Assembly (NCBI RefSeq): GCF_000179635.2
Contig: NC_014833.1
Location: forward strand, 330,001 to 362,000
From: Ruminococcus albus 7 = DSM 20455
Lineage (GTDB): Bacteria; Bacillota; Clostridia; Oscillospirales; Ruminococcaceae
Reading direction: 5' to 3'
DNA length: 32,000 nt
Below, piece after piece: positions 731 to 19,764 of the stretch. Every line of letters begins with the position of its first letter. Within the stretch, counting starts at the first letter, position 1. A model generated the notes under the pieces. It was not told the origin of the DNA. It searched no databases and saw only the letters and a program-made list of their open reading frames with translations. Both the position numbers and the translations under genes were made by a program.

Positions 731-3496
731 ATGAAACGATTTATTTCAGCAGCACTGATCGCTGCAATGGCGGCAGGAACGGTCTCGCAGTTCCCGCTTC
801 AGGCAACAGCGGCAGGAAACAGCTATGAGCTGGAAAACGGAACCATTTATGATGCAGGAGAGAACACTACAAAAGTACTGTCTTTGACAGGTGCAAGCGG
901 CGGTAAAGTCATCGACCTGAAAGATGCAGGCGATTCTGTTACCATATCAGCCAATATGGCAAGTGCAGGTATGTACAAGCTGACACTGCGTTACAGTCAG
1001 CCCTTTGATGAAGGCGGAAAATACCAGAACATACTTATCAACGGTGAGAATATCGGACAGATACAGTGTGCTTACACAGGTCAGAATAAATTTGCGGAAG
1101 TCAGCACCTTGGCATACCTTGATAAGGGAGCAAACAAGATTACCATTCAGGGATCCTGGGGCTGGACCTATCTTGATAAACTGACGATAGATAAAAGCGA
1201 GGTATCTGTAGGAAACATAAATACATCCCTATCCAATCCGAATGCTTCTGCACAGGCGAAGTCCCTATACAGTTTCTTGTGTGATACTTACGGGGATCAT
1301 ATTATTTCTGGTCAGCAGGAGTCCACTTGGATGGGCAGTGAAGATTATGAAATGAATATCATCAAGAACGCCAGCGGAAAATATCCTGCCCTTCGCGGAC
1401 TTGACTATATGGGCGATGACTTTTCAGGCTGCAACCGTCGTGCAAAAGCATGGTATGCAAAAGGCGGCATTGTTACGATATGCTGGCATTGTGGAAGTGA
1501 TTTCAGCGGAAGCCACTCGGAGGCACTTGCAACTGATCTTGACTGGAACAAGGCGCTGACTCCCGGAACAAATGAGTACAATAAACTCATAGCGGGTATG
1601 GACAAGGGTGCAAAGGCACTGCTGGAACTGAAGCAGGCAGGCATACCTGTTATATGGCGTCCCTTCCACGAATTTGACGGTAAGTGGTTCTGGTGGGGCA
1701 AAGGTGGAGCTGATAATTTCAAAAAGCTCTGGAGGATAATGTACGACCGCTATACCAATGTATGGGGACTTGACAATCTTATCTGGAATCTTGGTTATTG
1801 CGGAGACGTCAACAGCGGCTGGTATCCGGGTGATGAATATGTAGATATTGTCGGAGCTGATACTTACGTAGACAATACCAATTCACTCGTCGGTATATAT
1901 CAGAAAGCAGCACAGGTCACCAATAAAGCCGTTTGCCTGCACGAGAACGGTCCTATACCCGATCCCGATAAGCTGACAGCGGAAGGTGCAAAATGGCTGT
2001 GGTTTATGACATGGCACACTTCGTTCATTGATAGTCATGCTATAAATACAGCTTCGTATGTGAAGCACGTATATACCAGCGACTATGTGCTGACACTTGA
2101 TGAACTGCCTGATGTATATCACTATACTTCGGCAGGCAACAATGATACACCTCAGGAACTTCCTGCGGTGTCCGTTAAATATTCTTCCGGTCATCCCAAT
2201 AATATCATCAGCCGTAATGTTCCTGCATACGCTAGTGCAGGAAGAGCCTCTGACGGAAATGACAACTATTATTATACGGAATGGTCTGCAAATGCACCTG
2301 CATACCTTGCTTATGATCTTTCTTCTGTTCCAAGTTCAGACAGGAAGCAGGTACTTGCGGCATGGTACAATACAGGTACCTTTGATAACATCGGATATTA
2401 CGTCAATAAAAGTAATGAGCCTGTAAATTACACAATTGAACTCAATTCCGCACCGGGAGGTTCCTATCCTGCTGACGGTTGGGTAACTGCCGCAACAGTT
2501 AATGATAACCACTACAGCTCTCGCCAGCATTACATTGATATGCAGGGATACAACTGGATAAGACTTAATGTAAAAAAATCAGATAACGGACTTGTTAAGC
2601 TGAATTTTGATGTGCATAACGCTTCTGAAGGAGTATCTGACAGCTGGCTGTTCTTAGGTGATTCCATCACTGCGGGAAGTATGGTCAACTGTTATGGTAC
2701 AAGCTTTGCAGAGTTTATGAACCGTATTGATCCGAAGTATTATCCCGTTCAGCAGAATGGCGGTATAGGCGGTACATTAAGTTCTGACGGCAAAAATGCT
2801 ATAGATAGCTGGCTTCGCGACAACTCCGCAAAATATGTCAGCATCGCTTATGGCACTAATGATGCGTGGGGCAATCCAAACAATACACAGCGGTATTATG
2901 AGAATGTAAAGTACATGGTAGATGCCGTTATCGCAGCAGGTAAAACTCCTGTTCTGCCTAAGATACCGTATGCTACCAATAAGGATGTTGGCTCTAATAC
3001 AGGCTATTATAATGCGATGATAGATAAACTCTATCAGGAATACGGCTCTAAGATCGTTCACGGACCCGACTTTGATAAATTCTTCAGAGAACACACAGAA
3101 TATCTCAGCAGCGATGGGGTACACCCCAGTTCAGACGGATACGAAGCTATGCGAAAGCTTTGGGCGGAAACTATGTACGCAAATGTCCACTCGGGCAATC
3201 AGAATAGCGAAAAGACTTATCCCGATAATATCCGTGTAAGCTACAGCTCTCAGTATCATCAGATCAGATTTACATGGAACGCAGTGAAGAATGCTCAGAA
3301 CTACGGTATCGCAGTTTATCTGGCAGGAAAGTGGAGGATCCAGACTCAGTCCATACCGTCTTCCACTATGTCATATACAACTCCCAAGAACCTGACACCC
3401 GGCATGACATACAGGGTCGCTATAGCTGCTAAGGTCGGTGGTAAATGGGATACTGCCGGCGCTATCAAGAACTATGTAAGAGTTACTGTAAAGTGA
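731..3496 (+). CDS. Secreted multimodular enzyme: signal peptide, CBM35/CBM6-like module, GH26 beta-mannanase, beta-sandwich module, SGNH/GDSL esterase, C-terminal Fn3-like module
   Basis: 921-aa ORF with a strong SD. The signal peptide reads MKRFISAALIAAMAAGTVSQFPLQATAAG. The CBM35-like block reads YELENGTIYD..AGMYKLTLRYSQ..LDKLTID. GH26 signatures are ICWHCG, WRPFHEFDGKWFWWG (acid/base HE) and CLHENGP (nucleophile E). SGNH blocks are FLGDSITAGS (GDS at about 2657-2665), YGTNDAW and DGVHPS. Confidence 0.9.
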   Translation: MKRFISAALIAAMAAGTVSQFPLQATAAGNSYELENGTIYDAGENTTKVLSLTGASGGKVIDLKDAGDSVTISANMASAGMYKLTLRYSQPFDEGGKYQNILINGENIGQIQCAYTGQNKFAEVSTLAYLDKGANKITIQGSWGWTYLDKLTIDKSEVSVGNINTSLSNPNASAQAKSLYSFLCDTYGDHIISGQQESTWMGSEDYEMNIIKNASGKYPALRGLDYMGDDFSGCNRRAKAWYAKGGIVTICWHCGSDFSGSHSEALATDLDWNKALTPGTNEYNKLIAGMDKGAKALLELKQAGIPVIWRPFHEFDGKWFWWGKGGADNFKKLWRIMYDRYTNVWGLDNLIWNLGYCGDVNSGWYPGDEYVDIVGADTYVDNTNSLVGIYQKAAQVTNKAVCLHENGPIPDPDKLTAEGAKWLWFMTWHTSFIDSHAINTASYVKHVYTSDYVLTLDELPDVYHYTSAGNNDTPQELPAVSVKYSSGHPNNIISRNVPAYASAGRASDGNDNYYYTEWSANAPAYLAYDLSSVPSSDRKQVLAAWYNTGTFDNIGYYVNKSNEPVNYTIELNSAPGGSYPADGWVTAATVNDNHYSSRQHYIDMQGYNWIRLNVKKSDNGLVKLNFDVHNASEGVSDSWLFLGDSITAGSMVNCYGTSFAEFMNRIDPKYYPVQQNGGIGGTLSSDGKNAIDSWLRDNSAKYVSIAYGTNDAWGNPNNTQRYYENVKYMVDAVIAAGKTPVLPKIPYATNKDVGSNTGYYNAMIDKLYQEYGSKIVHGPDFDKFFREHTEYLSSDGVHPSSDGYEAMRKLWAETMYANVHSGNQNSEKTYPDNIRVSYSSQYHQIRFTWNAVKNAQNYGIAVYLAGKWRIQTQSIPSSTMSYTTPKNLTPGMTYRVAIAAKVGGKWDTAGAIKNYVRVTVK
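3218..3493 (+). other. C-terminal Fn3-like module (copy 1 of 4 in this window)
   Basis: YPDNIRVSYSSQYHQIRFTWNAVKNAQNYGIAVYLAGKWRIQTQ..TYRVAIAAKVGGKWDTAGAIKNYVRVTVK. It aligns with the C-termini of the ORFs at 14662..16248 (two copies) and 20006..21397. Confidence 0.7.
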
Positions 3497-3681: not shown

Positions 3682-3720
3682 AGAACATCATCACGGTATG
3701 ACGGTGTTCTTTTTTATTTT
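3682..3720 (+). terminator. rho-independent terminator for the plus-strand GH26-esterase gene
   Basis: AGAACATC (3682-3689) pairs with GGTGTTCT (3703-3710), including one G-U pair. TTTTTTATTTT follows. The T-run overlaps the stop codon of the convergent minus-strand gene. Confidence 0.55.
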
Positions 3721-5210
3721 CTTGCCTGTTCAAGGCATTTTTTAACAGCATTCATTATGGCATTTGAACTGTAGGTAGCGCCTGATACTGCATCAACTTC
3801 ATAACTCTGGTAATAGAGGATATCACCTGCGATCTTCTCATATGCTGAGTCGAAATACTCGGGTTCTTCCTCATCGGAATAGGCTGATATTTCAGTGATG
3901 ACATCATTCTCAATGGTTATGGTGACGTGTACATCTCCGTCATAACCGTAAGCTTTATCCTCATAGGTGCCGTTGTTGTAGATGTACTCAGGCTCGGGAG
4001 GCGCAGTGACAGGCGGCTGAGTCTGAACAGGCTCTTTTACTTCCTGACGCTGTTCTTCCTGCTTCTCATGTTTTTCTTCCTGTCTGTTGTCTTTGTGTTC
4101 TTCACGCTGTTCTTTGTGTTCTGATTGGTCTTCATGATCTTCCGTGTCTTCATGCTCATCCTGCTGTTCCTGATCTTCTTCGTGCCCTTCTTCGTCTTTA
4201 TCATCATTATCCGAAGAACTGTCTTTCTTGCCGGAACTTGAACTGTCCTTTTTTGAAGAACTGCTGTCTGATGAACTTTTGCTGTCGGAAGAACTGCTGT
4301 CGCCTGCGGCAGTCGATAAAGTGCCGTCATTGTCTGCACTCAGCCTTAATGCCGCTCTGTCTTCGCCGTCTGTCGGAGAAGTGTCGGTATTCTTCTTTAT
4401 ACTGATGGTCTTTGAAGCGGGTCTGCTCGTTTTTACCTTGTTCTGAGGTTTGCCGTAACTGCAAAAAGCGATGATACCGGTAAGCAGCACTACACAAGCT
4501 GTACTTGCGATATTCAGCCATGCCTTGCTTTCCGGGGACTTCTTCTTTACGTACCACTTTCTTATTCTGAGGATCATGTAAGCTCCGAATACTGCAGTAT
4601 ACACAACACAGCTGAAGAAATAACCTTCTATACCTGCCTTAGCCTTGGGTATAAACAGTATGATGATGTGAAGATATATCAGCGCATAGAAAACGTATGC
4701 CGCACGTTGTATATTCTTCCATTTTTTTGCGTTCATCTTTTTGCGTATCTTCTTGAAAGATATGACTGTAAGCGGTACCATTATCAGCACCAGTGCCGCA
4801 CATACCACACAGGTGAGCAGGAAGTCTGCTGTTTTGCTGAAATTCGGGTTGGTCAGCTGTTTTATATACGATATCCCGAAGAATACTATATGGGACAGCG
4901 TTACTGTTGCCGAGAAGATGGAAAGCTCGCCTCTTATTGGCATCAGGCGCTTTATAGCCTTGCTTCCGTCGGGGAGTACGCGCATACCCATTACGACCAT
5001 CCACAGTGCACCCGCCAGTGCACCTCTTGAAAAAAGCCCTATGACATACTTGCGTATAATGATATTTTCTACGGGCTGTTGTGCCAGTACTATCATAAGT
5101 ACCGATATCAGCGTGCCGCCGATATAGAATGCTGCGGGAGCTTTTTTTAGAGCACCCGCACACAGCACTGAGAACAGCACCGCGATGGTCAGAGCGATAA
5201 GAAATAACAT
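3714..5210 (-). CDS. Membrane protein: ferric-reductase/MsrQ-like polytopic domain, long acidic Ser/His-rich linker, extracytoplasmic FMN_bind domain
   Basis: 498-aa ORF. About 8 hydrophobic helices lie in aa 1-253, with His in helices (TLSHIVFF, LIYLHIIILF) as expected for b-haem ligands. A low-complexity linker spans about aa 254-408. The C-terminal block YEDKAYGYDGDVHVTITIENDVITEISAY..EVDAVSGATYSSNAIMNAVKKCL is an FMN_bind domain with the canonical ApbE target motif. The SD GTGAGGT lies upstream of the ATG at 5210. Confidence 0.85.
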   Translation of the reverse strand: MLFLIALTIAVLFSVLCAGALKKAPAAFYIGGTLISVLMIVLAQQPVENIIIRKYVIGLFSRGALAGALWMVVMGMRVLPDGSKAIKRLMPIRGELSIFSATVTLSHIVFFGISYIKQLTNPNFSKTADFLLTCVVCAALVLIMVPLTVISFKKIRKKMNAKKWKNIQRAAYVFYALIYLHIIILFIPKAKAGIEGYFFSCVVYTAVFGAYMILRIRKWYVKKKSPESKAWLNIASTACVVLLTGIIAFCSYGKPQNKVKTSRPASKTISIKKNTDTSPTDGEDRAALRLSADNDGTLSTAAGDSSSSDSKSSSDSSSSKKDSSSSGKKDSSSDNDDKDEEGHEEDQEQQDEHEDTEDHEDQSEHKEQREEHKDNRQEEKHEKQEEQRQEVKEPVQTQPPVTAPPEPEYIYNNGTYEDKAYGYDGDVHVTITIENDVITEISAYSDEEEPEYFDSAYEKIAGDILYYQSYEVDAVSGATYSSNAIMNAVKKCLEQARK

Positions 5211-5265
5211 ATTTTTATTACCTCACATTCTGTCGTTCGTTTTATACGACTAACTTCAATGAGAT

Positions 5266-5294
5266 ATTATACTTTATGTGAGCGATGTTGTCAA
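5266..5294 (-). promoter_or_regulatory. consensus sigma-A promoter of the MsrQ-like/FMN_bind gene
   Basis: On the minus strand: -35 TTGACA (5289-5294), a 17-nt spacer, -10 TATAAT (5266-5271). Confidence 0.65.
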
Positions 5295-5336
5295 TTAAAT
5301 ATTATATATTTTTACGAAAAGTTAATATTCACAAAA

Positions 5337-5357
5337 TTAGCCTTGGCTAACTTTGCG
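5337..5357. promoter_or_regulatory. palindromic candidate operator between the divergent promoters
   Basis: TTAGCC-TT-GGCTAA is a perfect 6-2-6 inverted repeat at 5337-5350, followed by CTTTGCG. A related TTAGCTATATCTAA-CTTTGCG occurs at 7562-7582. Confidence 0.3.
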
Positions 5358-5420
5358 TGAATTCGTCATTATGTTAGATTAGGTGAGACTAATCAGTGCC
5401 TTATTCGTTTAAAGATACTC

Positions 5421-5449
5421 TTGATTATTTCATGGTGATATAGTATAAT
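5421..5449 (+). promoter_or_regulatory. sigma-A promoter of the apbE operon
   Basis: -35 TTGATT (5421-5426), a 17-nt spacer, -10 TATAAT (5444-5449). This leaves a roughly 105-nt leader before the ATG at 5562. Confidence 0.6.
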
Positions 5450-5561
5450 TATCCATGCGGATAGTAGCGGCTAACTAATTTTGGCAGTGATAAAGAAGTT
5501 ATGGTACTAACGGTGCAGCTGCCTTCGTGACATAAAACAGCGGCAGATCGGAGAGAAAAGG

Positions 5562-6605
5562 ATGAAGAATAAAATTGTGTCAGCTGTTATTACGGCAGTA
5601 CTGTTCATACTTACCTCATGTGCTGCAGATGCTCCCGATGACAGCATCGCAGGTGTGACAGGTGAAAAGAAAAGCAGCGGCTCGGTATTCGCTATGGATA
5701 CCTATATGACGATCACTGCCTATGGTAAAAACGGCGAAAAAGGGATCGAAGCTGCGCAGAAGGAAATAACAAGGCTTGAAAAACTCTGGTCTGTAACTGA
5801 CGAAAACAGTGAGATATACGCTATCGACCACAGCGGCGGAACTGATGTGGAAATAAGTACCGAGACCGAAGAGATACTCAGTTTTGCAACAGATATGCAC
5901 AGACGTACAAAAGGAGCACTTGATATCACCCTTTATCCTGTACTGAGGGCGTGGGGCTTTACCACGGGTGAATACCGTGTTCCCGATGAAGATGAGATAT
6001 CTGCGCTCCTGGAATGTAAGGGCGTTGATATGATAAAGGTGGACAGCGGAAAAGTGTCTGTTCCTGAAAACACCGAGATTGATCTTGGTGCAATAGCGAA
6101 GGGCTGTGCGGGAGATGCTGCGGCAGAGGCTTTGAAAGATCAGGGAGTGACTTCGGCACTGCTTGACCTTGGCGGTAATATACAGACCGTAGGAGATACA
6201 AAGCCTGATGGCACAAAATGGAAGGTAGGCATACGCGATCCCTTCGGGGAGGGAAGTATAGGCACACTATCTGTTGGAGAATGTGCAGTCATAACATCGG
6301 GCGGATACGAAAGATTCTTTGAACAGGACGGAGTGATATACAAGCATATCCTAGACCCTGAAACAGGCAGACCTGCCGAAAGCGGTCTGGCTAGTGTCAC
6401 GATAATCGGAAATGAGGGCAGGACGTGCGATGCGCTTTCGACATCGCTGTATGTTATGGGTCTTGATGATGCCTGCGGATACTGGCGGGAAAATGGTGAT
6501 TTCGATATGATACTGGTATCGGATGAAGGCGGTATATATGTGACCGAAGGCATATCCGATAGTTTTGCTCCTTCAGCGGGAAATGTAACAGTGGTAAAAA
6601 GATGA
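5562..6605 (+). CDS. apbE: FAD:protein FMN transferase (ApbE/Ftp), lipoprotein
   Basis: 347-aa ORF. The lipobox is FILTSC. Family blocks are FAMDTYMTITAYG, LDITLYPVLRAWGF, IDLGAIAKG, LLDLGGNI, AVITSGGYERFF and YKHILDPETGRPA. Confidence 0.93.
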   Translation: MKNKIVSAVITAVLFILTSCAADAPDDSIAGVTGEKKSSGSVFAMDTYMTITAYGKNGEKGIEAAQKEITRLEKLWSVTDENSEIYAIDHSGGTDVEISTETEEILSFATDMHRRTKGALDITLYPVLRAWGFTTGEYRVPDEDEISALLECKGVDMIKVDSGKVSVPENTEIDLGAIAKGCAGDAAAEALKDQGVTSALLDLGGNIQTVGDTKPDGTKWKVGIRDPFGEGSIGTLSVGECAVITSGGYERFFEQDGVIYKHILDPETGRPAESGLASVTIIGNEGRTCDALSTSLYVMGLDDACGYWRENGDFDMILVSDEGGIYVTEGISDSFAPSAGNVTVVKR

Positions 6606-6961
6606 GAACAAGAACTATCTGTATCATCATTACATTGTTGATACTTTCGACAGCTGCGGTATGGTGCGCACACATCATGAAACCGAAAAACGGCAAAACA
6701 GCAGTTATATCACAGGACGGCAAAGTGCTTTACCGCATAGACCTTTCATCTGAAAAGGACAGGACTATAGAAGTAACATACAATGGCAGAAAAAATATCA
6801 TTGAGATAAAAGACGGCAGGATACGTATGAAGGATGCTGATTGTCCCGACCATATATGTGTGGATACAGGATGGCTGGAGGACGGTAAGCCCATAGTATG
6901 TCTGCCGAACAGACTTGTGATAGAGTATGAGGAAAGCGATATCGACGGTACAGCGAGGTGA
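6602..6961 (+). CDS. NusG domain II-containing (DUF1312-type) membrane-anchored protein
   Basis: 119-aa ORF. Its ATG overlaps the apbE stop (ATGA at 6602-6605). It has an N-terminal TM anchor, then IEIKDGRIRMKDADCPDHICVDTGW..GKPIVCLPNRLVIE, typical of this family. Confidence 0.8.
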   Translation: MRTRTICIIITLLILSTAAVWCAHIMKPKNGKTAVISQDGKVLYRIDLSSEKDRTIEVTYNGRKNIIEIKDGRIRMKDADCPDHICVDTGWLEDGKPIVCLPNRLVIEYEESDIDGTAR

Positions 6962-6962
6962 G

Positions 6963-7469
6963 ATGATGGATACAAAAAAACTTACGCGCCTTGGTCTGCT
7001 GACCTGCCTTGCGCTTATAATATTCATTGTTGAATTGCGTATACCCGATATCGTTCCCATTCCCGGGGTAAAACTTGGTCTTGCAAACATTGTGACCGTG
7101 TATTGCATTTACAACTACCGCCCTGGAGAAACTGCCATGATGCTGTACAGCAGGATACTTCTGGGGGCACTGTTCAGCGGCAATCTTATGGCGCTGTGGT
7201 ACAGTATAGCAGGCGGCACCCTCTGCTTTGTCGGTATGGTTTTTCTGAAAAAGATCATACATGAGGACAATATGTGGTTTTTGAGCATAGCAGGTGCTGT
7301 GCTGCATAATATCGGTCAGATAGCCGTTGCTATACTTGTGCTGAAAAGTACGTCGGTCATAGCATATCTGCCATTCCTGATGTTATCGGGGTGTATCGCT
7401 GGAGCTTTCACGGGTCTGTGCGCACAGATGGTCTGCAGAAGACTTAAAAGATCCGGCAAGGTTAGCTAA
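6963..7469 (+). CDS. Gx transporter family protein (Hpre_diP_synt_I / ECF S-component-like)
   Basis: Family blocks are LTRLGLLTCLALIIFIVE, PGVKLGLANIVTV, YSIAGG and GAVLHNIGQIAVA. I place the start at the ATG at 6963 (MMDTKK), 2 nt after the upstream stop and behind GAGGTG, rather than at the longest-ORF start at 6927. Confidence 0.85.
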   Translation: MMDTKKLTRLGLLTCLALIIFIVELRIPDIVPIPGVKLGLANIVTVYCIYNYRPGETAMMLYSRILLGALFSGNLMALWYSIAGGTLCFVGMVFLKKIIHEDNMWFLSIAGAVLHNIGQIAVAILVLKSTSVIAYLPFLMLSGCIAGAFTGLCAQMVCRRLKRSGKVS

Positions 7470-7499: not shown

Positions 7500-7528
7500 T
7501 TGACGAATTTCTAGTGATATGGTATGAT
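7500..7528 (+). promoter_or_regulatory. sigma-A promoter (extended -10) of the dockerin-protein gene
   Basis: -35 TTGACG (7500-7505), a 17-nt spacer ending in TGG, -10 TATGAT (7523-7528). Confidence 0.6.
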
Positions 7529-7614: not shown

Positions 7615-9138
7615 ATGAGAAAAACAAAAAGAATTTTCAGCTTGTCGATATGTGCTGCAATGGCAGCAGCTTCGATACCTATGAATGTTTTTGCCGATGA
7701 GGTAAAGGCAGAGGAATACGTATACGGCACTATGAAGATACCCTATGCAAAGTTTTATGAGGCTGAGGCTGAGAACCTGAGCAATGCTGATGGCCTTGAT
7801 GCTGTAACTTCTGCAACTGTCAACAAGACGAGGATGAACGGTGAGGGTCAGCTTTTTGAAGGTACATACAACAATGCGGGCGAGGAAGGTTCTGATGAAC
7901 TGGGTAAGATCTACGGCGTTGTATACCCCGTTGCAATAAAGCAGGCAGACCTTGAGGCTCTGGGCGAGAACAACTACGGTTTTACTGCAGTTTCCGAAAA
8001 GCCCGAAGCTTACAAGACCGTTACCGTTGCTGAAGGTGATGCAAGCTTCTCGGCTGTAAACGATGAGAACCCCGATAATGTAACAGGTTCCATGACACTG
8101 AACACCAATACCCCCTGGGGCGATTATGCAGGAAATGTTACAGGCAAGCCCGAGAACGGTACTGTCATCTATGGTATAATCATAAAGACCAAGAACGGTG
8201 AAGCTTACGCACTCCGTCACGAGCAGAACATCTGGAGAAATGCGGAGTTCTCATGGTCATCAGGTGTAAAGACCACCGAGTCTCACGGCATCGCACTTGA
8301 TTACCAGGGCTTTGAGAGCCTGATGGGAAATACCATTACCGAGATGGAATACATCACTGCGACAGGCTATGTTAAGGTAGATGTAGGTGAGGTTTATGTT
8401 CCTGTTAAGTTTGTTGGCGGAATCGCTGTTGAAAACACTGCTGTAAGTGCAGGCAAGGCAGATATAGTACTGACAGATGTTCCCGAGGATTTTGATATCT
8501 CATACAGCATCGAGGGTCTTGAAGCTGTATTCAAGGATAACGGATTTACTTTTGCAAATGCAAATCCGGGCAGCTATACCCTTTCTGCTAAGGACAGCAA
8601 GGGCAAGTATGCAGATATCTCTACAAGTTTTATGCTGACAACAGCTGATCTTCCTGCTGCATTTGACGGTGAGGAGAATAAGCTGACTGCAGCTGAGGGC
8701 TTTACAGCTGAACAGCTCGAAGCATATATCAAGAATATTTCTTCCGTTACTGTAAATGAAAAGGAGTATTCCGCAAAGGGCAAAAGAGCTAAGGTGATCA
8801 TCAAGGGCGACGGCACACTTGATACCGAGAGCGATGTATTTGCTGAGGGCGAGAATTTTGAGATAACTGTAAAGGCAACAGGCTATGATAATGATCTGGC
8901 ATTCACATACACCAAAAAGGCTGGTGTGGAGCCTGTTGAATATAATAGCGGTGATGTAAACGGAGATAATGCCGTAAACATTACTGATATATCCATGATA
9001 TCAGCTCATGTCAAAGGCAAAAAGCAGCTTGACGAAAAGGGATTCAAGGCAGCTGATGTAAACGGTGACGGTAAGGTAAATGTTAGCGATATCGTTGCTA
9101 TAGCTGCTCATGTCAAGGGCATCAAGCTTATAAAGTAA
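7615..9138 (+). CDS. Secreted dockerin-containing protein of unknown function, with an N-terminal DAVTSAT motif
   Basis: 507-aa ORF with SD AAGGAG. The signal peptide ends ..IPMNVFA/DEV. The N-terminal region holds GLDAVTSATVNKT (aa 60-72). Ig-like central segments follow. A segment ISSVTVNEKEYSAKGKRAKVIIKGDGTLD..ITVKATGYD is reminiscent of DUF1533/Shr-HID-type repeats, from memory only. A dockerin closes the C-terminus. Confidence 0.85.
   Translation: MRKTKRIFSLSICAAMAAASIPMNVFADEVKAEEYVYGTMKIPYAKFYEAEAENLSNADGLDAVTSATVNKTRMNGEGQLFEGTYNNAGEEGSDELGKIYGVVYPVAIKQADLEALGENNYGFTAVSEKPEAYKTVTVAEGDASFSAVNDENPDNVTGSMTLNTNTPWGDYAGNVTGKPENGTVIYGIIIKTKNGEAYALRHEQNIWRNAEFSWSSGVKTTESHGIALDYQGFESLMGNTITEMEYITATGYVKVDVGEVYVPVKFVGGIAVENTAVSAGKADIVLTDVPEDFDISYSIEGLEAVFKDNGFTFANANPGSYTLSAKDSKGKYADISTSFMLTTADLPAAFDGEENKLTAAEGFTAEQLEAYIKNISSVTVNEKEYSAKGKRAKVIIKGDGTLDTESDVFAEGENFEITVKATGYDNDLAFTYTKKAGVEPVEYNSGDVNGDNAVNITDISMISAHVKGKKQLDEKGFKAADVNGDGKVNVSDIVAIAAHVKGIKLIK
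8950..9135 (+). other. type I dockerin module (two EF-hand-like repeats)
   Basis: GDVNGDNAVNITDISMISAHVKGKK ... ADVNGDGKVNVSDIVAIAAHVKGIK. Confidence 0.9.
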
Positions 9139-9235: not shown

Positions 9236-9278
9236 AAAGGACAGATACTATAGAACGTATCTGTCCTTTTCTTTTTTG
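9236..9278 (+). terminator. second, tandem rho-independent terminator
   Basis: AAAGGACAGATAC (9236-9248) pairs with GTATCTGTCCTTT (9257-9269): 13 bp with an 8-nt loop. TCTTTTTTG follows. Confidence 0.7.
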
Positions 9279-9664: not shown

Positions 9665-9796
9665 TTAATCAGGATAAATGATATAGGCAAATTCAATATA
9701 AATTATAAAAATTAACTTGATAATTATTTTGAATGTGTACTTTATATTTCGTGGTATAAACAAATAACAAAAGGTAATTTGAGTGGAGGGATCTTT

Positions 9797-11746
9797 ATGA
9801 CAAAGAGATTTTTAGCAGGACTTATGACTATCGCTTTAGTATTCGGCGGAACAGCAATTCCTCAGAGCATAAATATAATAGATACCTCCATTACTGCAAG
9901 CGCAGACAGAGTGGAAGGCTATTTTGAATATGCTTTCATAGATGACGTCAGAAGCGGCATAAATATTAAGGGCTACAACGGCGGCGAATCTAACGTTGTT
10001 ATACCTTCTTATATCAATGGCGTGCCTGTTGTTGGCATAAGCGGATATGCTTTCAGTGGAAAATCCTACATCAACAGCGTTACAATACCCGAAACAGTTA
10101 CCACAATCGATATGTATGCTTTCTATTCCTGCACAAACCTCAGGACAATAAGCAATGCAAGCGGTCTGAAAAAGATAGGTATGTATGCTTTCTTCGGCAA
10201 CACTTCTCTTACCAAGATAACTATACCCGGCGGCGTTACTGAGATAGGCTACGGAGCTTTTGATTCTTGCACAAATCTCGAAAAAGTCAGCCTGCCTAAG
10301 AACCTTACAAATATCCACGGTATGGCATTCAACGCAACCAAGTGGCTCGAAAATATGCAGAAAAAGAGCGATCTGGTCATCGTAAACGGCGTAGTTCTCG
10401 ACGGCAGAAACTGCAACGGTTATGTAAAGATACCTGACGGTGTAGTTAGTATCGGCGGTAATGCTTTTGCAAAGAACAATAATATTTCCGGCGTTGGCAT
10501 ACCTAACAGCGTAAAGTCCATAGGCGCATTCGCATTTGGCAGCTGCGGCAGAATAAGGAACATAATAATACCCGGCAGCGTAACAAGTATAGACTATGAT
10601 GCTTTTAAGGGCTGTTACAATCTTGAAAGTATATATATACCCAACAGCGTTACATACATCGGCTACGATGCTTTTACAGATACAAAGTGGCTTGCAGCTC
10701 AGCAGGCTAAGAGCTCTCTCGTAGTAGTCAACAATATCGTGATCGACGGCAGAAAATGTTCAGGCAGAGTAGTTATACCCAACGGCACAAAGGCTATCTG
10801 TGATAACGCATTCGCACTGAATAGCATGATGACCGATGTTTCTATACCCGGAAGCGTAAAGGAGATCGGAGATTACGCATTCGTTTCCTGCACAGCTCTC
10901 CAGAAGATAGTTATACCCGAAGGTGTTACCACCATAGGTTCAAATGCTTTCCTCGAAGCAAGAAGCCTTCAGTCGGCAGTTATACCCGACAGCGTTACAT
11001 ATATGGGTCAGGAAGCTTTCAAGGAATGTTCTGCACTTGCAGAAGTTACCGTTCCCGGCAGCATCGAAACAATAGAACTTGCAACATTCCAGGAATGCCA
11101 GAGCCTCAAGTCCGTTACCATAGAGGGCGGCGTTAAGAACCTGAATGAATATGCATTCTCAAACTGCAGCGCACTTACCAATATGAATATCTCCGGTAGT
11201 GTTGAAAACGTAAAGTGGCGCGCATTCTATGGCTGCACCAGCCTTTCCGAAGTTACTTTCTACGAGGGTCTTACCACTATCGCAGCTTATGCATTCCAGA
11301 AATGTGATTCGATAATGACCATCACTCTTCCCAAGAGCCTGAAAAATATCACCGCTACATCTTTCAACTACAGCGTTCCCGGATTTAAGATCAGAGGCTG
11401 TGCAAATACTACAGCACAAAGACTTGCATCATACGCAAACGTAGGTTTTGAAGTTCTTGAAGCTCCAATGTACTCCGGCGATGTTATGGTACAGAACAGC
11501 GAACCCAGATTAGATACTATCAAAGCTGACAACAAGAATACATCAGCTGCAGTTTCCGGAAAAGGCGATTTAAACAATGACGGAAACATAAATGTATCTG
11601 ATATATCCAAGATAGCAGCTCACATAAAGGGCAAGAAGATGCTTGGTAATGGTAAGGTTGCAGACATAAACAACGACAGCACAGTCAATGTTACCGATCT
11701 TTCGCTGCTGGCAGCTCATATAAAGGGCAAGAAGATAATGAAATAA
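9797..11746 (+). CDS. BspA-type leucine-rich-repeat (LRR_5) protein with a C-terminal dockerin
   Basis: About 20 repeats of the form IPxSVTxIGxxAFxxCxxLxxIxIP. The signal peptide reads MTKRFLAGLMTIALVFGG. I place the start at the ATG at 9797, 6 nt after GGAGGG, rather than at the TTG at 9779 used by the ORF track. Confidence 0.9.
   Translation: MTKRFLAGLMTIALVFGGTAIPQSINIIDTSITASADRVEGYFEYAFIDDVRSGINIKGYNGGESNVVIPSYINGVPVVGISGYAFSGKSYINSVTIPETVTTIDMYAFYSCTNLRTISNASGLKKIGMYAFFGNTSLTKITIPGGVTEIGYGAFDSCTNLEKVSLPKNLTNIHGMAFNATKWLENMQKKSDLVIVNGVVLDGRNCNGYVKIPDGVVSIGGNAFAKNNNISGVGIPNSVKSIGAFAFGSCGRIRNIIIPGSVTSIDYDAFKGCYNLESIYIPNSVTYIGYDAFTDTKWLAAQQAKSSLVVVNNIVIDGRKCSGRVVIPNGTKAICDNAFALNSMMTDVSIPGSVKEIGDYAFVSCTALQKIVIPEGVTTIGSNAFLEARSLQSAVIPDSVTYMGQEAFKECSALAEVTVPGSIETIELATFQECQSLKSVTIEGGVKNLNEYAFSNCSALTNMNISGSVENVKWRAFYGCTSLSEVTFYEGLTTIAAYAFQKCDSIMTITLPKSLKNITATSFNYSVPGFKIRGCANTTAQRLASYANVGFEVLEAPMYSGDVMVQNSEPRLDTIKADNKNTSAAVSGKGDLNNDGNINVSDISKIAAHIKGKKMLGNGKVADINNDSTVNVTDLSLLAAHIKGKKIMK
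11564..11743 (+). other. type I dockerin module
   Basis: GDLNNDGNINVSDISKIAAHIKGKK ... ADINNDSTVNVTDLSLLAAHIKGKK. Confidence 0.9.
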
Positions 11747-11876: not shown

Positions 11877-13223
11877 TCAGCGTGCGGGGCTCGTGACAGC
11901 TTCTTGCTCGGGGCGGTACATGAGTATGCTTACGTTGAATATCCCGTTGTGAGTTTCGATGACCATTGAGCCTTTGTATCGTTTCACGATGTTCTGTACA
12001 GAATGAAGACCTATGCCATGCCCATCCTTGTTAGTTATCGGCAGATCGTTCCTGCCAATCTCTATTCTGCCGCGATAGGGATTGTATATGGATAGTACCA
12101 GTGTTTTCGGGTTCAGCATACCTATTCGGACATTTACAAGACGGTTGTCACCGTCAAGCTCGGATGCTGCACGTATGGCATTTTCCACCAGGTTTCCCAT
12201 AACTGCGCACATATCAGATTCTTTCACCGGCAGATCATCACCTAAGTCTATGGACCAGTTTATCGCGATCTCCAGCGACTTTGCAACTTCATCATAGTGA
12301 CTTGCTATAGCATCTACTGCCTGATTTTCGCATAGTATTTTGTGACTCTGTGAGATATGCTCCACAAGGGGAGCGAGGTATTCGTTCAGTTTGTCCGTCT
12401 GACCTTTTTTCAGATATTCATTGATGAGGAGTATATGCTGGCGGAAATCGTGGCGGAGCTGGGAGGATTCCTGTAAGTAGCGCCTTGTTTTTCTGTACTG
12501 GTTTTCTTCCATCTGAAACAGGTCAAGGCTTCGTTCCATTTCCGCACGCTCGGTCAGCTTATTTGAAAGCCACCAAAGTATATGAAAAAGGAACAACGTT
12601 ATCAGCGGGATATTAAGAAATGTAACAATGCAAATCTTTCTCAGTCTGCCTGTCATGACATTCTCCGCACTGACGGGATTTATCCAGATAATTACAACAG
12701 CACCCACTACAGGGGCTATGGAAAGAACGCGCCAAGCCTGATCGAGACTTTCGTTATCAAACATATCCGGAATCTTTTTGAACAGCGTTCGTGCAAAGAC
12801 CACCCCGATAGATGATGCGACCCCAAGACATATCGTACCTGAAAGCTGGGTATAGACATTATATGTGTTTTTCAGTTCAAGGGGCGCGGTGAGAAATGTG
12901 TTGTAGGTGGTAGCAAAGCCGCACAGGAATACAGAATTTGCAAACGCAAATATTTTTTTGAAAACGGACAGTTCAAAGCAGAAATGATATATTATAAAAA
13001 GTGTCGCCATTGATGGGAAAAGCAGGGTATTCGTTGGGATCCGCATAATTGAGCATAGTGCGGCGCCGCCTATAGTGAAGAACGAGAGCAGTATCGCAAG
13101 TGAGCAGAACAGAAACGGTTTGTTGACCCTTCGGAAACGATACACAGGAATTATAGCGATGGCAGCGGCAGGTATGATCATTGCAAGCTCGGTGAAATAC
13201 CGCAGCATCAGGCTGAAATTCAT
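11877..13223 (-). CDS. AgrC/ComD-like membrane sensor histidine kinase (GHKL, HATPase_c_5 type)
   Basis: 448-aa ORF with 6-7 N-terminal TM helices. The N-box reads MGNLVENAIRA and the G-box reads DGHGIGLHSVQNIVKRYKG. Its ATG overlaps the stop of the upstream regulator (ATGA at 13220-13223). Confidence 0.85.
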   Translation of the reverse strand: MNFSLMLRYFTELAMIIPAAAIAIIPVYRFRRVNKPFLFCSLAILLSFFTIGGAALCSIMRIPTNTLLFPSMATLFIIYHFCFELSVFKKIFAFANSVFLCGFATTYNTFLTAPLELKNTYNVYTQLSGTICLGVASSIGVVFARTLFKKIPDMFDNESLDQAWRVLSIAPVVGAVVIIWINPVSAENVMTGRLRKICIVTFLNIPLITLFLFHILWWLSNKLTERAEMERSLDLFQMEENQYRKTRRYLQESSQLRHDFRQHILLINEYLKKGQTDKLNEYLAPLVEHISQSHKILCENQAVDAIASHYDEVAKSLEIAINWSIDLGDDLPVKESDMCAVMGNLVENAIRAASELDGDNRLVNVRIGMLNPKTLVLSIYNPYRGRIEIGRNDLPITNKDGHGIGLHSVQNIVKRYKGSMVIETHNGIFNVSILMYRPEQEAVTSPAR

Positions 13224-13960
13224 ATATCGAGCCTCCTGCGCATACGCGATGCAGCGTACTTCGTGAATTTTGCAAGAATATCCTTGCGCCCGCGTCTGCG
13301 GACCGGATATATGATCTCGTCCTGCATGATTATCTGATCGCCCCTGACCTGTGAGGCATAATCCATGTTGACTATTACGCCTCGGCTGCAGAACAGGAAA
13401 TTCGGCTCATTTTCCAAAGCAGATTCCAGTTCGCCGAACAGCATGATGCTATGCTTTACTTCGCCTGTGATCAGTTTAACATCGACTGAGTGATTATTGG
13501 AAAGCACAGCGACTATCTCGGAAAGGGGTATCTCAACTACCATGTGTGGGATGTTTACTTTCAGCATTTTTTCCTCTGCATCCATATCACGTATGGTCCT
13601 GCTCATGATCTCGGCAAAGGCAGCATACTCAAAGGGCTTGCACAGGTAGCCTTTGGGCTGGGAAGGGAATGACTGAAAAACGAAATCGCGTGTGGTGGAC
13701 ATAAAAATGATACCGATATCACGGTCAGCTATACGCAGTTGTTCTGCAAGCGTTAGTCCGTCCATTTCACCCATGCACACATCAATAAATACGATCTCAA
13801 ACATACCTTTTCGGTAGGATCTTAGAAATTCCTCGGCGGATGAGTAATTTGCTGTCCTTACATTACAGTTGCGACGATCGTTGAAAAAACGGTCAAGGCA
13901 GTTCTTTATGACGATGCGGTCGTGTTCAAGGTCATCAACGACCGCGATATTAAGCTCCAT
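13220..13960 (-). CDS. LytTR-family response regulator (AgrA-like)
   Basis: 246-aa ORF. The receiver domain reads IAVVDDLEHDR..VFIDVCMGEMDGL. The C-terminal LytTR-type domain reads VNIPHMVVEIPLSEIVAVLSNNHSVDV..FLFCSRGVIVNMDY. The SD is GAGAGGTG. Confidence 0.85.
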   Translation of the reverse strand: MELNIAVVDDLEHDRIVIKNCLDRFFNDRRNCNVRTANYSSAEEFLRSYRKGMFEIVFIDVCMGEMDGLTLAEQLRIADRDIGIIFMSTTRDFVFQSFPSQPKGYLCKPFEYAAFAEIMSRTIRDMDAEEKMLKVNIPHMVVEIPLSEIVAVLSNNHSVDVKLITGEVKHSIMLFGELESALENEPNFLFCSRGVIVNMDYASQVRGDQIIMQDEIIYPVRRRGRKDILAKFTKYAASRMRRRLDI

Positions 13961-16327: not shown

Positions 16328-17989
16328 TCAAAGATTTCTTATCCCTTTAATATGTGCAGCTATCAGTGAAATGTCTGTAATATTCACCTTGCCGTCGCCG
16401 TTTACATCGGCTGCGGTTTTGTCCTTAGGTGTCTTTATTCCCTTGACCAGTGCCGCTGCAAGAGAAATGTCAGTAACATCTACCTTGCCGTCGTGGTTGA
16501 TATCACCTGTCTGAAGATCATCTACGGGTGGTACATCACCTTCGACGGGATAAGATCTAAGGTCGGGGAGCTCATCCAGTGTCAGAACATATTCGCTGTT
16601 ATAGACTTTCTTCCACATCTCAGCGGTGGAGTACTCTTCCGAAAGCTTGCTGCCGCTGCGAACGAATTCTCCGCCCCAGATACAGAACCAGCTCCACAGG
16701 GTATTTCTGTCATGAGCTACATCGGGATCAAAAAGACAGCCGTTCTCCGAAAGGGTTACTATCTTTGTGTCATCGGTATAATCTGCAGCCTCCAGGAACT
16801 TGCTTGACTGAGGAGAAGTCACCTGCTTGCCGGGGTATATGTCTTCACCGATGATATCCACATACTCATCTCCGGGATACCAGTCCTTTGACTGACCGTT
16901 GTATACCCATATCAGATTGTTCAGACCATGTTCATTTGTAAGCTTGTCATACATGGTCACCCAGAGCTTTTTGTAACTGTTCGCGCTTCCACTGCCCCAC
17001 CAGAACCAGCCGCCGCTGCCCTCGTGGAGAGGTCTGAACAGTATCGGAACATCTGCATCCTGCAGTTTTTTCAGTTCAGCTGCTATAGTATCAATATCAG
17101 ACATCAGCAGCTTATAACCCTCGGGATCCTTGCCGTTCATTACAGCATCAAAATCAATAGTAACATTTGCGGTGTAAAAACTGCCCCACCACATGGGGTT
17201 GCCGTTGCTGTCTTTTCCCTCTTTTATGTACTTTCTGGGTGCGCTCCAGTGCCAGCACATCTCAACTATTCCGCCTGCCTTAGAGAATTCAATTGCCTTT
17301 TCTACTGAGTTTCCCTTTGCGCCAAGAGATACTCTTGACGGTGTGTAGTCCATAAGGTCAAGTCCGACCAGTGCAGGGGTCTTGCCTGTAGCTTCCTTTA
17401 TTACCTTAAATTCTGTGCCGTTCAGACCGCCGTCGCACTGCTGTCCCGAAATTGTCTTCATACCGTAGTTGTCTTTCAGGAAAGCCATAAGACGCTTGGT
17501 GCTGTCAGTGGCATTTTTATTTGAAAGCTCACCCTTAACATCGTAGCTGTTTTTCAGCTGTGCTGCATTTATCACCAGTGCATCGATGTTTATCCAGCCC
17601 CATGAGGGTGTCACAGTGATGTCATGGCTGCCCTTTTCCATGAATACATTCTTTATTTCCGAATCGTTCATAGCGCCGCTTTCAGACTTGAATCTGCCTG
17701 TGAACTCACCATCTACGGAAGCGTTGTTCTCCTTGCTGCCGCCAATGCCCGAACTTATGAAATCCAGATCGTACCAGCCGGTCTCAGATATCTCCACCTT
17801 GAAAGTCACACTGCCCTCGCTTTTCAGGCTTACATAATCTCCCTGAACGTCAACTTTGTCCAGTACTGCCTTCTCAGCCTCATATCTTGCCGCAGCTTTC
17901 TCAGCTGAAACAGGTACTGATGCCAGAACACAGACTGCAGCGCATACAGCTGCCAGCACCCTTTTGTGCCTTGCTTTGATATTATCCAT
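16328..17989 (-). CDS. Secreted CBM35-like GH26 beta-mannanase with a C-terminal dockerin
   Basis: 553-aa ORF with SD GGAGGG and a signal peptide. The CBM block reads RYEAEKAVLDKVDVQGDYVSLKSEGSVTFKVEISETGWYDLDF. GH26 blocks are MCWHWSAP, FRPLHEGSGGWFWWG and TLSENGCLF. A dockerin closes the C-terminus. Confidence 0.92.
   Translation of the reverse strand: MDNIKARHKRVLAAVCAAVCVLASVPVSAEKAAARYEAEKAVLDKVDVQGDYVSLKSEGSVTFKVEISETGWYDLDFISSGIGGSKENNASVDGEFTGRFKSESGAMNDSEIKNVFMEKGSHDITVTPSWGWINIDALVINAAQLKNSYDVKGELSNKNATDSTKRLMAFLKDNYGMKTISGQQCDGGLNGTEFKVIKEATGKTPALVGLDLMDYTPSRVSLGAKGNSVEKAIEFSKAGGIVEMCWHWSAPRKYIKEGKDSNGNPMWWGSFYTANVTIDFDAVMNGKDPEGYKLLMSDIDTIAAELKKLQDADVPILFRPLHEGSGGWFWWGSGSANSYKKLWVTMYDKLTNEHGLNNLIWVYNGQSKDWYPGDEYVDIIGEDIYPGKQVTSPQSSKFLEAADYTDDTKIVTLSENGCLFDPDVAHDRNTLWSWFCIWGGEFVRSGSKLSEEYSTAEMWKKVYNSEYVLTLDELPDLRSYPVEGDVPPVDDLQTGDINHDGKVDVTDISLAAALVKGIKTPKDKTAADVNGDGKVNITDISLIAAHIKGIRNL
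16331..16507 (-). other. type I dockerin module
   Basis: GDINHDGKVDVTDISLAAALVKGIK ... ADVNGDGKVNITDISLIAAHIKGIRNL. Confidence 0.9.
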
Positions 17990-18819: not shown

Positions 18820-19764
18820 ATGGGATTCAAAGTAATGGGCGTTACTGCCGGACGTAAGGACAGCAACTGTGAGATACTGCTGAAAGAGGCACTTCTTGTC
18901 TGTCAGGAGCAGGGTGCTGAGATAACTATGATCAATCTCAAGGACTATGAACTGCTTGACTGCACAGGCTGTACTTCATGTACAATGGGAATGTCAATGG
19001 GTAAGCATACAGGCTGTTCACTTGACAAAAAGGACGATAAGAAAAAGATAATGGACATTCTTCTCGATCAGGATGCTGTTATTTTTTCAGCACCTACATA
19101 CGCGCTTATGCCGTCCTCGCTTTTCCTGAAATTCATGCACCGCAACCTCGCGTATGAAACTGCATTCCTTACCAAGATAGGCGCTATAGCTCCCCGTGAC
19201 CGTGTAGGTGCCCTCATCGCTGTGGGCGGTTCAACACGTTCATGGCAGTCGATGGCTCTGGAATGTATGCAGGCAGCTACATTCTCAAACAGCTTCAAGA
19301 TAGTTGATATGTACATGGCAACAATGGTGCCCGCTCCCGCACAGGTTCTTCTGCACGAGGAAAAGCTTGCAAGGGCAAGAGAGATAGGTGCAAATATCAT
19401 GAAGTCACTGAATACCCCTGCCGCAGAGCGTCAGTGGCTGGGTGAGCCTGATGCAGGCTGGTGTCCTAACTGCCACAGCAATTGTCTTTGCCTTGGCGAA
19501 CCCCAGTGGAAGGGATTACAGTATCCTATAGAATGTGCAGTATGCGGTGCAGGCGGAGATCTTGTCAAGACAGATGACGGCAAGTGGAAATTTGTGATAG
19601 CAGCAAACGGACTTGAACGTGACCGTACTTCCGAGGAAGGCAGAGGAGTTCATTGTGACGAGATCGCAGATACACAGGGCGGTTTCTTTATGGATCCCCA
19701 GAAGCGCGCAACTGTTGCAGAGAAACTGGAGAAATATAAAAAGATAAAGTTCCCGGGAATATAA
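18820..19764 (+). CDS. NADPH-dependent FMN reductase / iron-sulfur-flavoprotein-like protein with a Cys-rich C-terminal extension
   Basis: 314-aa ORF with SD AAAGGAG. The flavodoxin-like N-terminus reads KVMGVTAGRKDSNCEILLKEAL. A compact Cys cluster reads CTGCTSC..(11 aa)..C. The C-terminal segment reads WCPNCHSNCLC..ECAVCG (CxxC...CxxC). Confidence 0.65.
   Translation: MGFKVMGVTAGRKDSNCEILLKEALLVCQEQGAEITMINLKDYELLDCTGCTSCTMGMSMGKHTGCSLDKKDDKKKIMDILLDQDAVIFSAPTYALMPSSLFLKFMHRNLAYETAFLTKIGAIAPRDRVGALIAVGGSTRSWQSMALECMQAATFSNSFKIVDMYMATMVPAPAQVLLHEEKLARAREIGANIMKSLNTPAAERQWLGEPDAGWCPNCHSNCLCLGEPQWKGLQYPIECAVCGAGGDLVKTDDGKWKFVIAANGLERDRTSEEGRGVHCDEIADTQGGFFMDPQKRATVAEKLEKYKKIKFPGI

Follow-up and report, generated by a model that had tools for sequence, protein, structure and literature searches.

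A Tp47-like surface domain with a conserved DAVTSAT motif as a predicted flavinylation substrate beside an MsrQ-like/ApbE gene cluster of Ruminococcus albus 7

The stretch of DNA considered here (the window) comprises 32,000 nucleotides of Ruminococcus albus 7 (contig NC_014833.1, positions 330,001 to 362,000), and the element in question is a seven-residue motif, D62-A-V-T-S-A-T68, in the product of the gene at 7615-9138 (+). Translation of this gene into a 507-residue protein confirmed the motif where the initial annotation had placed it, with D62 encoded at 7798-7800 and T68 at 7816-7818, D62 lying 35 residues past the likely cleavage site of a signal peptide made of MRKTKR, a hydrophobic core and VFA, then DE. 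That annotation had seen in the motif a possible non-canonical site of the transferase ApbE outside an FMN_bind domain, and the motif is indeed a serious candidate, supported by the conservation of D and T and by the linkage to ApbE, to a subunit of a flavin adenine dinucleotide (FAD) exporter and to an FMN_bind membrane protein. The product is best explained as a secreted, dockerin-anchored surface protein, the conserved extracellular partner of the MsrQ-like protein with a tethered FMN_bind domain encoded at 3714-5210 (-), and ApbE probably attaches flavin mononucleotide (FMN) covalently to T68, the predicted acceptor. The features concerned are collected in Table 1.

Table 1. Features of the motif-bearing gene and of the linked flavinylation and electron-transfer genes, in window coordinates (aa, amino acids; AF2, AlphaFold2).
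Feature	Position	Strand	Basis
MsrQ/ferric-reductase-like membrane protein with linker and C-terminal FMN_bind domain (498 aa)	3714..5210	-	Pfam FMN_bind, E 1.3e-16; NCBIfam MsrQ 4e-5, MamZ 2e-7
DAVSGAT, canonical flavinylation motif within the FMN_bind domain	3774..3794	-	Sequence scan
ApbE FAD:protein FMN transferase, LTSC lipobox	5562..6605	+	Pfam PF02424, E 1.8e-82
NusG_II-domain small membrane protein, conserved operon member	6602..6961	+	Pfam PF07009, E 2.3e-34; synteny
EetB homologue, ECF-S-type subunit for FAD export to ApbE	6927..7469	+	Pfam PF07456, E 3.4e-40
Promoter-like site TTGACG-17-TATGAT with TG upstream, ahead of the 7615-9138 gene	7500..7528	+	Consensus scan only
Signal peptide, aa 1-27, probable cleavage after VFA27	7615..7695	+	Read from sequence; equivalent N-termini in homologues
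Tp47-like N-terminal domain carrying the motif, aa 28-266	7696..8412	+	AF2, Foldseek, hhalign; without Pfam match
Motif D62-A-V-T-S-A-T68, T68 predicted FMN acceptor	7798..7818	+	Translation, conservation, model
Ig-like beta-sandwich linker domain, aa ~269-345	8419..8649	+	AF2 secondary structure; weak bMG6/Y_Y_Y matches in family members
Shr-like HID (DUF1533), aa 351-426	8665..8892	+	Pfam PF07550, 37.9 bits (gathering score 22.3)
Type I dockerin, cell-surface anchor, aa 446-497	8950..9105	+	Pfam PF00404, 50.4 bits
Terminator-like hairpin, 13 bp, then T run, after the 7615-9138 gene	9236..9269	+	Scan

The signal peptide and the dockerin show that the 7615-9138 product is extracytosolic, and other clades of the family are anchored by LPXTG/NPXTG, SLH or a lipobox instead of a dockerin. 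The Shr-like HID was found by Pfam in 78 of the 81 family members, the binding of haemoglobin or haem by such a domain being known only for streptococcal Shr. No match to aa 28-350 was obtained in Pfam or NCBIfam, and the Pfam check of the N-terminal region that the initial annotation had suggested thus revealed neither FMN_bind nor any other family. The mature protein contains no cysteine, as is also the case for 87 of 120 homologue N-terminal domains, which rules out Fe-S clusters and c-type haem as cofactors and leaves flavin as the only redox cofactor for which an attachment site can be recognised.

The motif was indeed strongly conserved. A homologue search with aa 28-435 as query yielded 192 proteins with 43-86% identity, from Ruminococcus, Oscillospiraceae, Lachnospiraceae and relatives, and residue counts were made on the 120 listed. 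In this alignment, a check also proposed at the outset, S66-A67-T68 was invariant (120/120) and D62 was found in 119; DAV[ST]SAT or a close variant occurred in 117, the exceptions being YAVTSAT (one) and DAVASAT (two). The motif was likewise present in all 80 loci examined, one per GTDB species, and its D, S, A and T (D35, S39, A40 and T41 in the numbering of the structural model) belong to a set of only 28 columns that never vary in the 239-residue domain. Composition predicts 0.018 occurrences of the pattern D..[ST][GSA]A[ST] in the 7615-9138 protein. The window (six-frame open reading frames of at least 100 aa, 17,549 residues) holds it exactly twice, once in this protein and once as the canonical DAVSGAT in the FMN_bind domain next door.

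From a structural point of view, AlphaFold2 applied to a 413-residue stretch with an 81-sequence alignment gave a confident model (pLDDT, the predicted score of the local distance difference test, 94.4; predicted TM-score, pTM, 0.87) composed of the N-terminal domain, the Ig-like domain and the HID. The N-terminal domain (239 residues) modelled alone reached a pLDDT of 92.9 and a pTM of 0.90, and T68 directly precedes a short helix that itself follows a beta-strand. Foldseek with this domain alone against the PDB retrieved Tp47 of Treponema pallidum (1o75; E 9.4e-6, probability 1.00, TM-score on the query 0.59-0.60) as the only significant neighbour, the next match having an E-value of 0.019; the whole 413-residue model returned only generic tandem Ig and cadherin matches (TM-score 0.15-0.2), which were not retained. 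Tp47, checked on the PDB chain, starts YGYATLSYADYWAGE...FDAVSRATHG, and hhalign pairs this stretch with YVYGTMKIPYAKFYEAE...LDAVTSATVN of the R. albus protein (E 6e-4). The family and Tp47 thus have in common an N-terminal signature, YG..L.Y..YW/FYA.E followed by D-A-V-[ST]-x-A-T (YG..L.Y..YWAGE...DAVSRAT in Tp47 itself). With single sequences the hhalign probability against Tp47 was only 28%, while a profile of 16 Tp47-family proteins matched the family profile at 93.3% (E 2.7e-7) over 71 columns, a second segment co-linear with the N-terminal signature match; reading of the alignments added a common C-terminal GY...VP.KF strand. The Tp47 family itself keeps the D, V, R and T of DAV[ST]RAT without exception, even where identity falls to about 25%.

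Pfam PBP-Tp47_a and PBP-Tp47_c matched neither the protein nor the 81 family members, while true Tp47 homologues all match them. Sequence searches of the PDB gave no meaningful match at E<=1 with the whole-protein profile and none at E<=10 with that of the N-terminal domain; Tp47 is therefore undetectable by HMMER from the side of the family. Besides being the only structural neighbour and a profile homologue, Tp47 occupies the same operon slot and is likewise extracytosolic and envelope-anchored, by a lipid in Tp47 and by the dockerin in R. albus. The R. albus domain is however about 90 residues shorter over the equivalent region, carries S instead of R at position 5 of the motif, and is followed by the Ig-like domain, the Shr-like HID and the dockerin, whereas Tp47 has C-terminal domains of its own. 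Taken together, aa 28-266 very likely constitute a compact, divergent member of the Tp47 superfamily and a functional partner of the MsrQ-like/ApbE system. The initial annotation had named a known non-flavin domain, with the motif residues buried in it, as what would speak against flavinylation. The first half of this applies, as the fold is a known one, but to our knowledge that of Tp47 has no established physiological function and its biochemical role is unsettled.

The genes around that of the motif protein are those of a flavinylation system. Two genes, the NusG_II and EetB-like ones, and not one as first counted, separate it from the ApbE gene. The PF07456 family corresponds to EetB, an energy-coupling factor (ECF) S subunit that exports FAD for ApbE (PMC9973259), and the operon therefore carries its own module for the supply and attachment of the cofactor. 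The protein encoded at 3714-5210 scored below the curated cut-off of NCBIfam MsrQ and had no PF01794 match at E<=1, while its orthologues match PF01794 weakly; the cognate FMN_bind partners read DA[VCY]SGAT in 63 loci. Between its membrane and FMN_bind domains lie approximately 160 residues (aa ~255-415; 3966-4448, -) of low complexity, Ser-rich and then strongly acidic and His-rich, and the orthologues of T. pallidum and of the Clostridium type are far shorter (360 and 390 residues, compared with 498).

This association was conserved across genomes. The order family gene, Ferric_reduct/FMN_bind gene, ApbE, NusG_II, PF07456 recurs in four unrelated contigs, and one Lachnospiraceae contig holds only the family gene and the Ferric_reduct/FMN_bind gene. 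In 61 of the 66 species loci with enough flanking sequence, the family gene is directly followed on its own strand by the membrane FMN_bind gene; in the R. albus clade, including the window, the latter is upstream and divergent. In a Clostridium-type genome, a true Tp47 homologue heads the operon Tp47, Ferric_reduct/FMN_bind, ApbE, NusG_II, PF07456, and in T. pallidum tp47 is directly followed by a Ferric_reduct/FMN_bind gene (L008, 9415-10497) whose motif, DVVSEAT, has Glu rather than Gly at position 5. This neighbour is probably TP0572. The flavinylation candidates given for T. pallidum by Deka et al. (2015) are only TP0171 and the membrane protein TP0572, with no mention of Tp47. In two further loci (L066 and L013), a two-copy family protein is encoded beside ApbE-NusG_II-EetB, and its flavinylation-like motifs are the only ones within 8 kb, a distance over which FMN_bind genes are also absent. 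DUF2271 and DUF3570 were discovered as substrates through this same "orphan apbE" pattern (Meheust 2021, PMC8238504).

Flavodoxin genes adjoin the family gene in three loci (L001 8322-8732, L006 9547-9957, L066 7174-7584), and genes of Rrf2, annotated in Pfam as an iron-dependent transcriptional regulator, lie nearby in three others (L013 1948-2382, L002 1256-1660, L004 6822-7244). Together with the HID, these neighbours give a weak hint of a link to iron or haem and of a possible control by iron limitation.

The domain is also widespread beyond the close family. With its profile, 884 representative clusters (50% identity) were recovered at E<=1e-3, against 692 at the stricter E<=1e-10. Many of these relatives span 900-2,400 residues and hold the domain in 2-8 copies, with one motif per copy. 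The motif was tallied in the 289 domain copies, from 147 distant representative proteins, that cover its region. D-x-x-[STA]-x-A-[ST] was present in 259 of them, most of the others reading DAVSSST or DAVS[ST]PT with Thr kept, and the terminal residue was T in 258 of these 259 motif copies. The multi-copy relatives also hold canonical FMN_bind domains, SLH anchors and HID, and some contain bona fide PBP-Tp47_a/c with DAVSRAT. Two of them, at loci L090 and L091, share their cluster with ApbE and two FMN_bind proteins, the membrane protein there being a NapH-like Fer4_5 one and not MsrQ-like; their motifs are four copies of DAVSTAT in one case and DTVSEAT plus four D[IV]VTTAT in the other. As NapH-like clusters thus exist beside MsrQ-like ones, the motif domain is used, judging from gene content, with at least two different transmembrane electron-transfer systems.

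Some of these relatives have distinctive architectures. Giant surface proteins (P0130, P0210, P0133, P0139, P0166, P0213 and P0220) combine FMN_bind, SLH or FIVAR and Shr-like HID with at least one copy of the motif domain; P0130 and P0210 also hold bona fide PBP-Tp47_a/c domains, and P0166 and P0213 add a beta-helix/pectate-lyase-like region. In a sub-clade of multi-copy proteins (P0153, P0196, P0198, P0239, P0245 and P0254), recognised by the signature YATTDMTWAEFYAGE, the Ala of the motif is replaced by Pro, as DA[VI][ST][ST]PT.

The motif can be compared with those of known ApbE substrates. It matches these at position 1 (Asp), position 6 (Ala) and position 7 (Thr), and even the free positions and the residue before D agree with the cognate motif (VDAVSSAT compared with VDA[VCY]SGAT). 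Replacement of G by A at position 5 was shown to leave about 50% flavinylation, and a seven-residue tag to be sufficient (PMC12052999). Several points nevertheless weigh against the modification of T68. Position 5 is S66 instead of Gly, and among the 259 copies it is S in 222, T in 27 and G in one, while in Tp47 proper it is R; the validated substrate classes have all been described with [S/T]GA[S/T] (PMC8238504, PMC11334425, PMC12052999), and a consistent avoidance of G could reflect a different constraint. The membrane protein, with its FMN_bind domain, is reason enough for an ApbE in the operon, so that linkage to ApbE alone is no proof, and of 33 fully flanked loci only 19 have ApbE within 8 kb. 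Recombinant Tp47 was reportedly crystallised without flavin, which is expected in the absence of ApbE and yet offers no support. Finally, the searchable literature contained no report of covalent FMN on the family or on Tp47, and no link of Tp47, PF14888/PF14889 or the Ruminococcus family to flavin; subscription-only papers lay outside this search, and prior publication is possible.

These points lend weight to another explanation, which we consider possible but rather unlikely, namely that the protein does serve the MsrQ-like/FMN_bind system as its conserved extracellular partner but bears no flavin itself, D-A-V-[ST]-[SR]-A-T being kept as a helix N-cap or structural turn, as a phosphate site for a non-covalent ligand, or as a docking surface for FMN_bind. 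The single G among 259 copies and the invariance of R in Tp47 proper are in line with it, as is the fact that the adjacent FMN_bind domain suffices to account for ApbE; moreover, GDY, RH..NIW and E.HG are equally invariant, the motif being one of several conserved patches. By contrast, a structural role would not require the likeness to the cognate FMN_bind motif to extend to non-required positions and to the residue before D, nor does it suit the loci in which the family protein has the only motif near ApbE. Thr is kept even where the Ala is replaced by S, P or G, which fits an acceptor hydroxyl, and a residue other than G at position 5 (E) is also found in the FMN_bind neighbour of T. pallidum. 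A covalent flavin on T68 is therefore still the reading that we retain as probable. As to the idea, voiced in the initial annotation, that the motif and its surroundings look like an FMN_bind domain of which only the two ends are left, a stretch of 14 residues around the motif can indeed be aligned with the cognate FMN_bind profile, in its C-terminal part; however, the hhalign probability was only 13% and confined to this stretch, PF04205 was absent at E<=1 from the protein and at E<=10 from the 81 members, and the segment is integral to a 239-residue domain that has Tp47 as its only significant PDB neighbour, with no FMN_bind among the Foldseek matches listed, and that matches Tp47 over three co-linear stretches (N-terminal signature, middle segment and C-terminal strand). 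A degenerate or truncated FMN_bind domain is accordingly rejected as very improbable.

A role as penicillin-binding or cell-wall enzyme, with a motif unrelated to flavin, is suggested by the fold and by the naming of the Pfam families PBP-Tp47_a/c, Tp47 having been called a novel penicillin-binding protein (Deka et al., 2002, as cited in PMC12417408). It appears improbable all the same, since the operon linkage to electron-transfer and flavinylation genes extends from spirochaetes to clostridia, fusions to FMN_bind domains occur in single polypeptides, and the neighbours in the loci read gene by gene belong to flavinylation and electron transfer, not to wall synthesis. Coincidence, which the initial annotation had allowed for, would be conceivable for a pattern with only five constrained positions, the expectation given above amounting to several random matches per genome; it is excluded by conservation, the motif being kept over 120 homologues, 80 species and hundreds of copies, down to a Tp47 family at about 25% identity.

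A wider reading concerns the Tp47 superfamily as a whole, for which we consider it slightly on the likely side that its members are unrecognised ApbE-flavinylated extracytosolic redox domains, including the major syphilis serodiagnostic antigen Tp47: Tp47 would be a covalent flavoprotein fed by the adjacent Ferric_reduct/FMN_bind protein, the multi-copy relatives would act as wall-spanning flavin wires, and ApbE would tolerate S, T or R in place of Gly.

From a mechanistic point of view, the following chain may be proposed. The 7615-9138 protein would be exported by Sec, the EetB-type exporter would supply FAD outside the membrane, and the lipoprotein ApbE would place FMN both on the Thr of the FMN_bind DAVSGAT and on T68 of DAVTSAT. 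Electrons would then cross the membrane through the haem-b-type MsrQ-like domain and reach the tethered FMN_bind flavin, whose acidic linker of about 160 residues may allow the domain to reach across the thick wall to its dockerin-anchored partner. They would next pass to the FMN of the Tp47-like domain at the cell surface and from there to an acceptor, possibly an iron or haem compound bound near the Shr-like HID. Both the way in which the electrons flow and the nature of this acceptor are inferred.

This arrangement can be compared with the flavinylated systems already described. DUF2271, DUF3570, Flavodoxin_4 and FMN_red (Meheust 2021, PMC8238504; Huang 2024, PMC11334425) share with the present family the co-localisation with apbE, a conserved motif in an extracytosolic domain other than FMN_bind, and the same membrane modules, MsrQ-like and NapH-like; for DUF2271 and DUF3570, the likeness extends to the setting of their discovery, that seen at L066 and L013. 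They differ in their [S/T]GA[S/T] motif, confirmed by co-expression and Ala mutants, whereas the Tp47-like family has S, T or R for G in a site that is predicted, and its fold is unlike all of theirs. The MsrQ-like system of Meheust (2021) unites, in a comparable cluster, a six-helix MsrQ/ferric-reductase-like protein with an FMN_bind domain and apbE, and a role in iron reduction has been proposed for some such systems (PMC8238504). Its published description, mainly from Actinobacteria, is however without a Tp47-like partner, and it often includes an NAD-binding domain that is absent, according to Pfam, from the R. albus cluster. The Tp47-like relatives with 2-8 motif domains, often with FMN_bind and SLH, resemble the multi-flavinylated proteins proposed as long-range flavin conduits (Meheust 2021; Huang 2024; PMC10339131), which are built from FMN_bind repeats instead of Tp47-like ones; the protein of the window has a single copy. 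In the PplA/FmnB/EetB locus of Listeria, a surface flavoprotein is likewise combined with an ApbE-type transferase and with FAD supplied via the EetB (PF07456) exporter subunit, but PplA consists of two FMN_bind domains and the membrane step relies on Ndh2 and a quinone, not on an MsrQ-like protein.

The Tp47-like proteins thus form a predicted new class of substrate and partner within ApbE-dependent extracytosolic electron transfer. If this is true, a widespread domain class would be added to the short list of ApbE substrates and the accepted motif would be relaxed at Gly, with consequences for motif-based genome mining and for flavin-tag engineering. It would also identify, for Ruminococcus and Oscillospiraceae of the rumen and gut, the end of an MsrQ-like electron-transfer system that is exposed at the surface. 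In R. albus this end would be docked to a cellulosome-type cohesin system, which would point to redox chemistry outside the cell, on the surface where fibre is degraded. A flavin-centred metabolism has been proposed for T. pallidum, and a testable role of Tp47, flavin-based periplasmic electron transfer with its neighbour gene, would fit this proposal. In a 2025 review, Tp47 is presented as an antigen and immune-evasion factor, and the penicillin-binding label is cited (PMC12417408).

As regards expression signals, no terminator-like site was found by scanning between 7469 and 7615, and an AT-rich sequence resembling a Fur box right before the start codon of the 7615-9138 gene was judged too weak (about 12/19 by eye). 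An Rfam scan of the window, in search of an FMN riboswitch or similar element, gave no match. The divergent intergenic region at 5211-5561 contains a perfect sigma-70 consensus, TTGACA-17-TATAAT, directed toward the ferric-reductase-like/FMN_bind gene (5294-5266, -) and a 10/12 match directed toward the ApbE operon (5421-5449, +).

Elsewhere in the window, a 314-residue FMN_red protein (NADPH-dependent FMN reductase) is encoded at 18820-19764 (+). Its match covers aa 12-161, the Pfam profile having 152 positions, and the six-frame scan found no D..[ST][GSA]A[ST] motif in it; some FMN_red proteins are ApbE substrates by virtue of C-terminal extensions. A LytTR/GHKL two-component pair lies at 11877-13960. 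The context is that of fibre degradation, typical of Ruminococcus (731-3496, 9779-11746, 16328-17989 and 20006-21397). It includes two mannanase-type proteins with GH26 and CBM35, one with an SGNH esterase domain (731-3496) and the other with a dockerin (16328-17989), together with BspA-type LRR_5 proteins, a dockerin being present in one and DUF285 in another.

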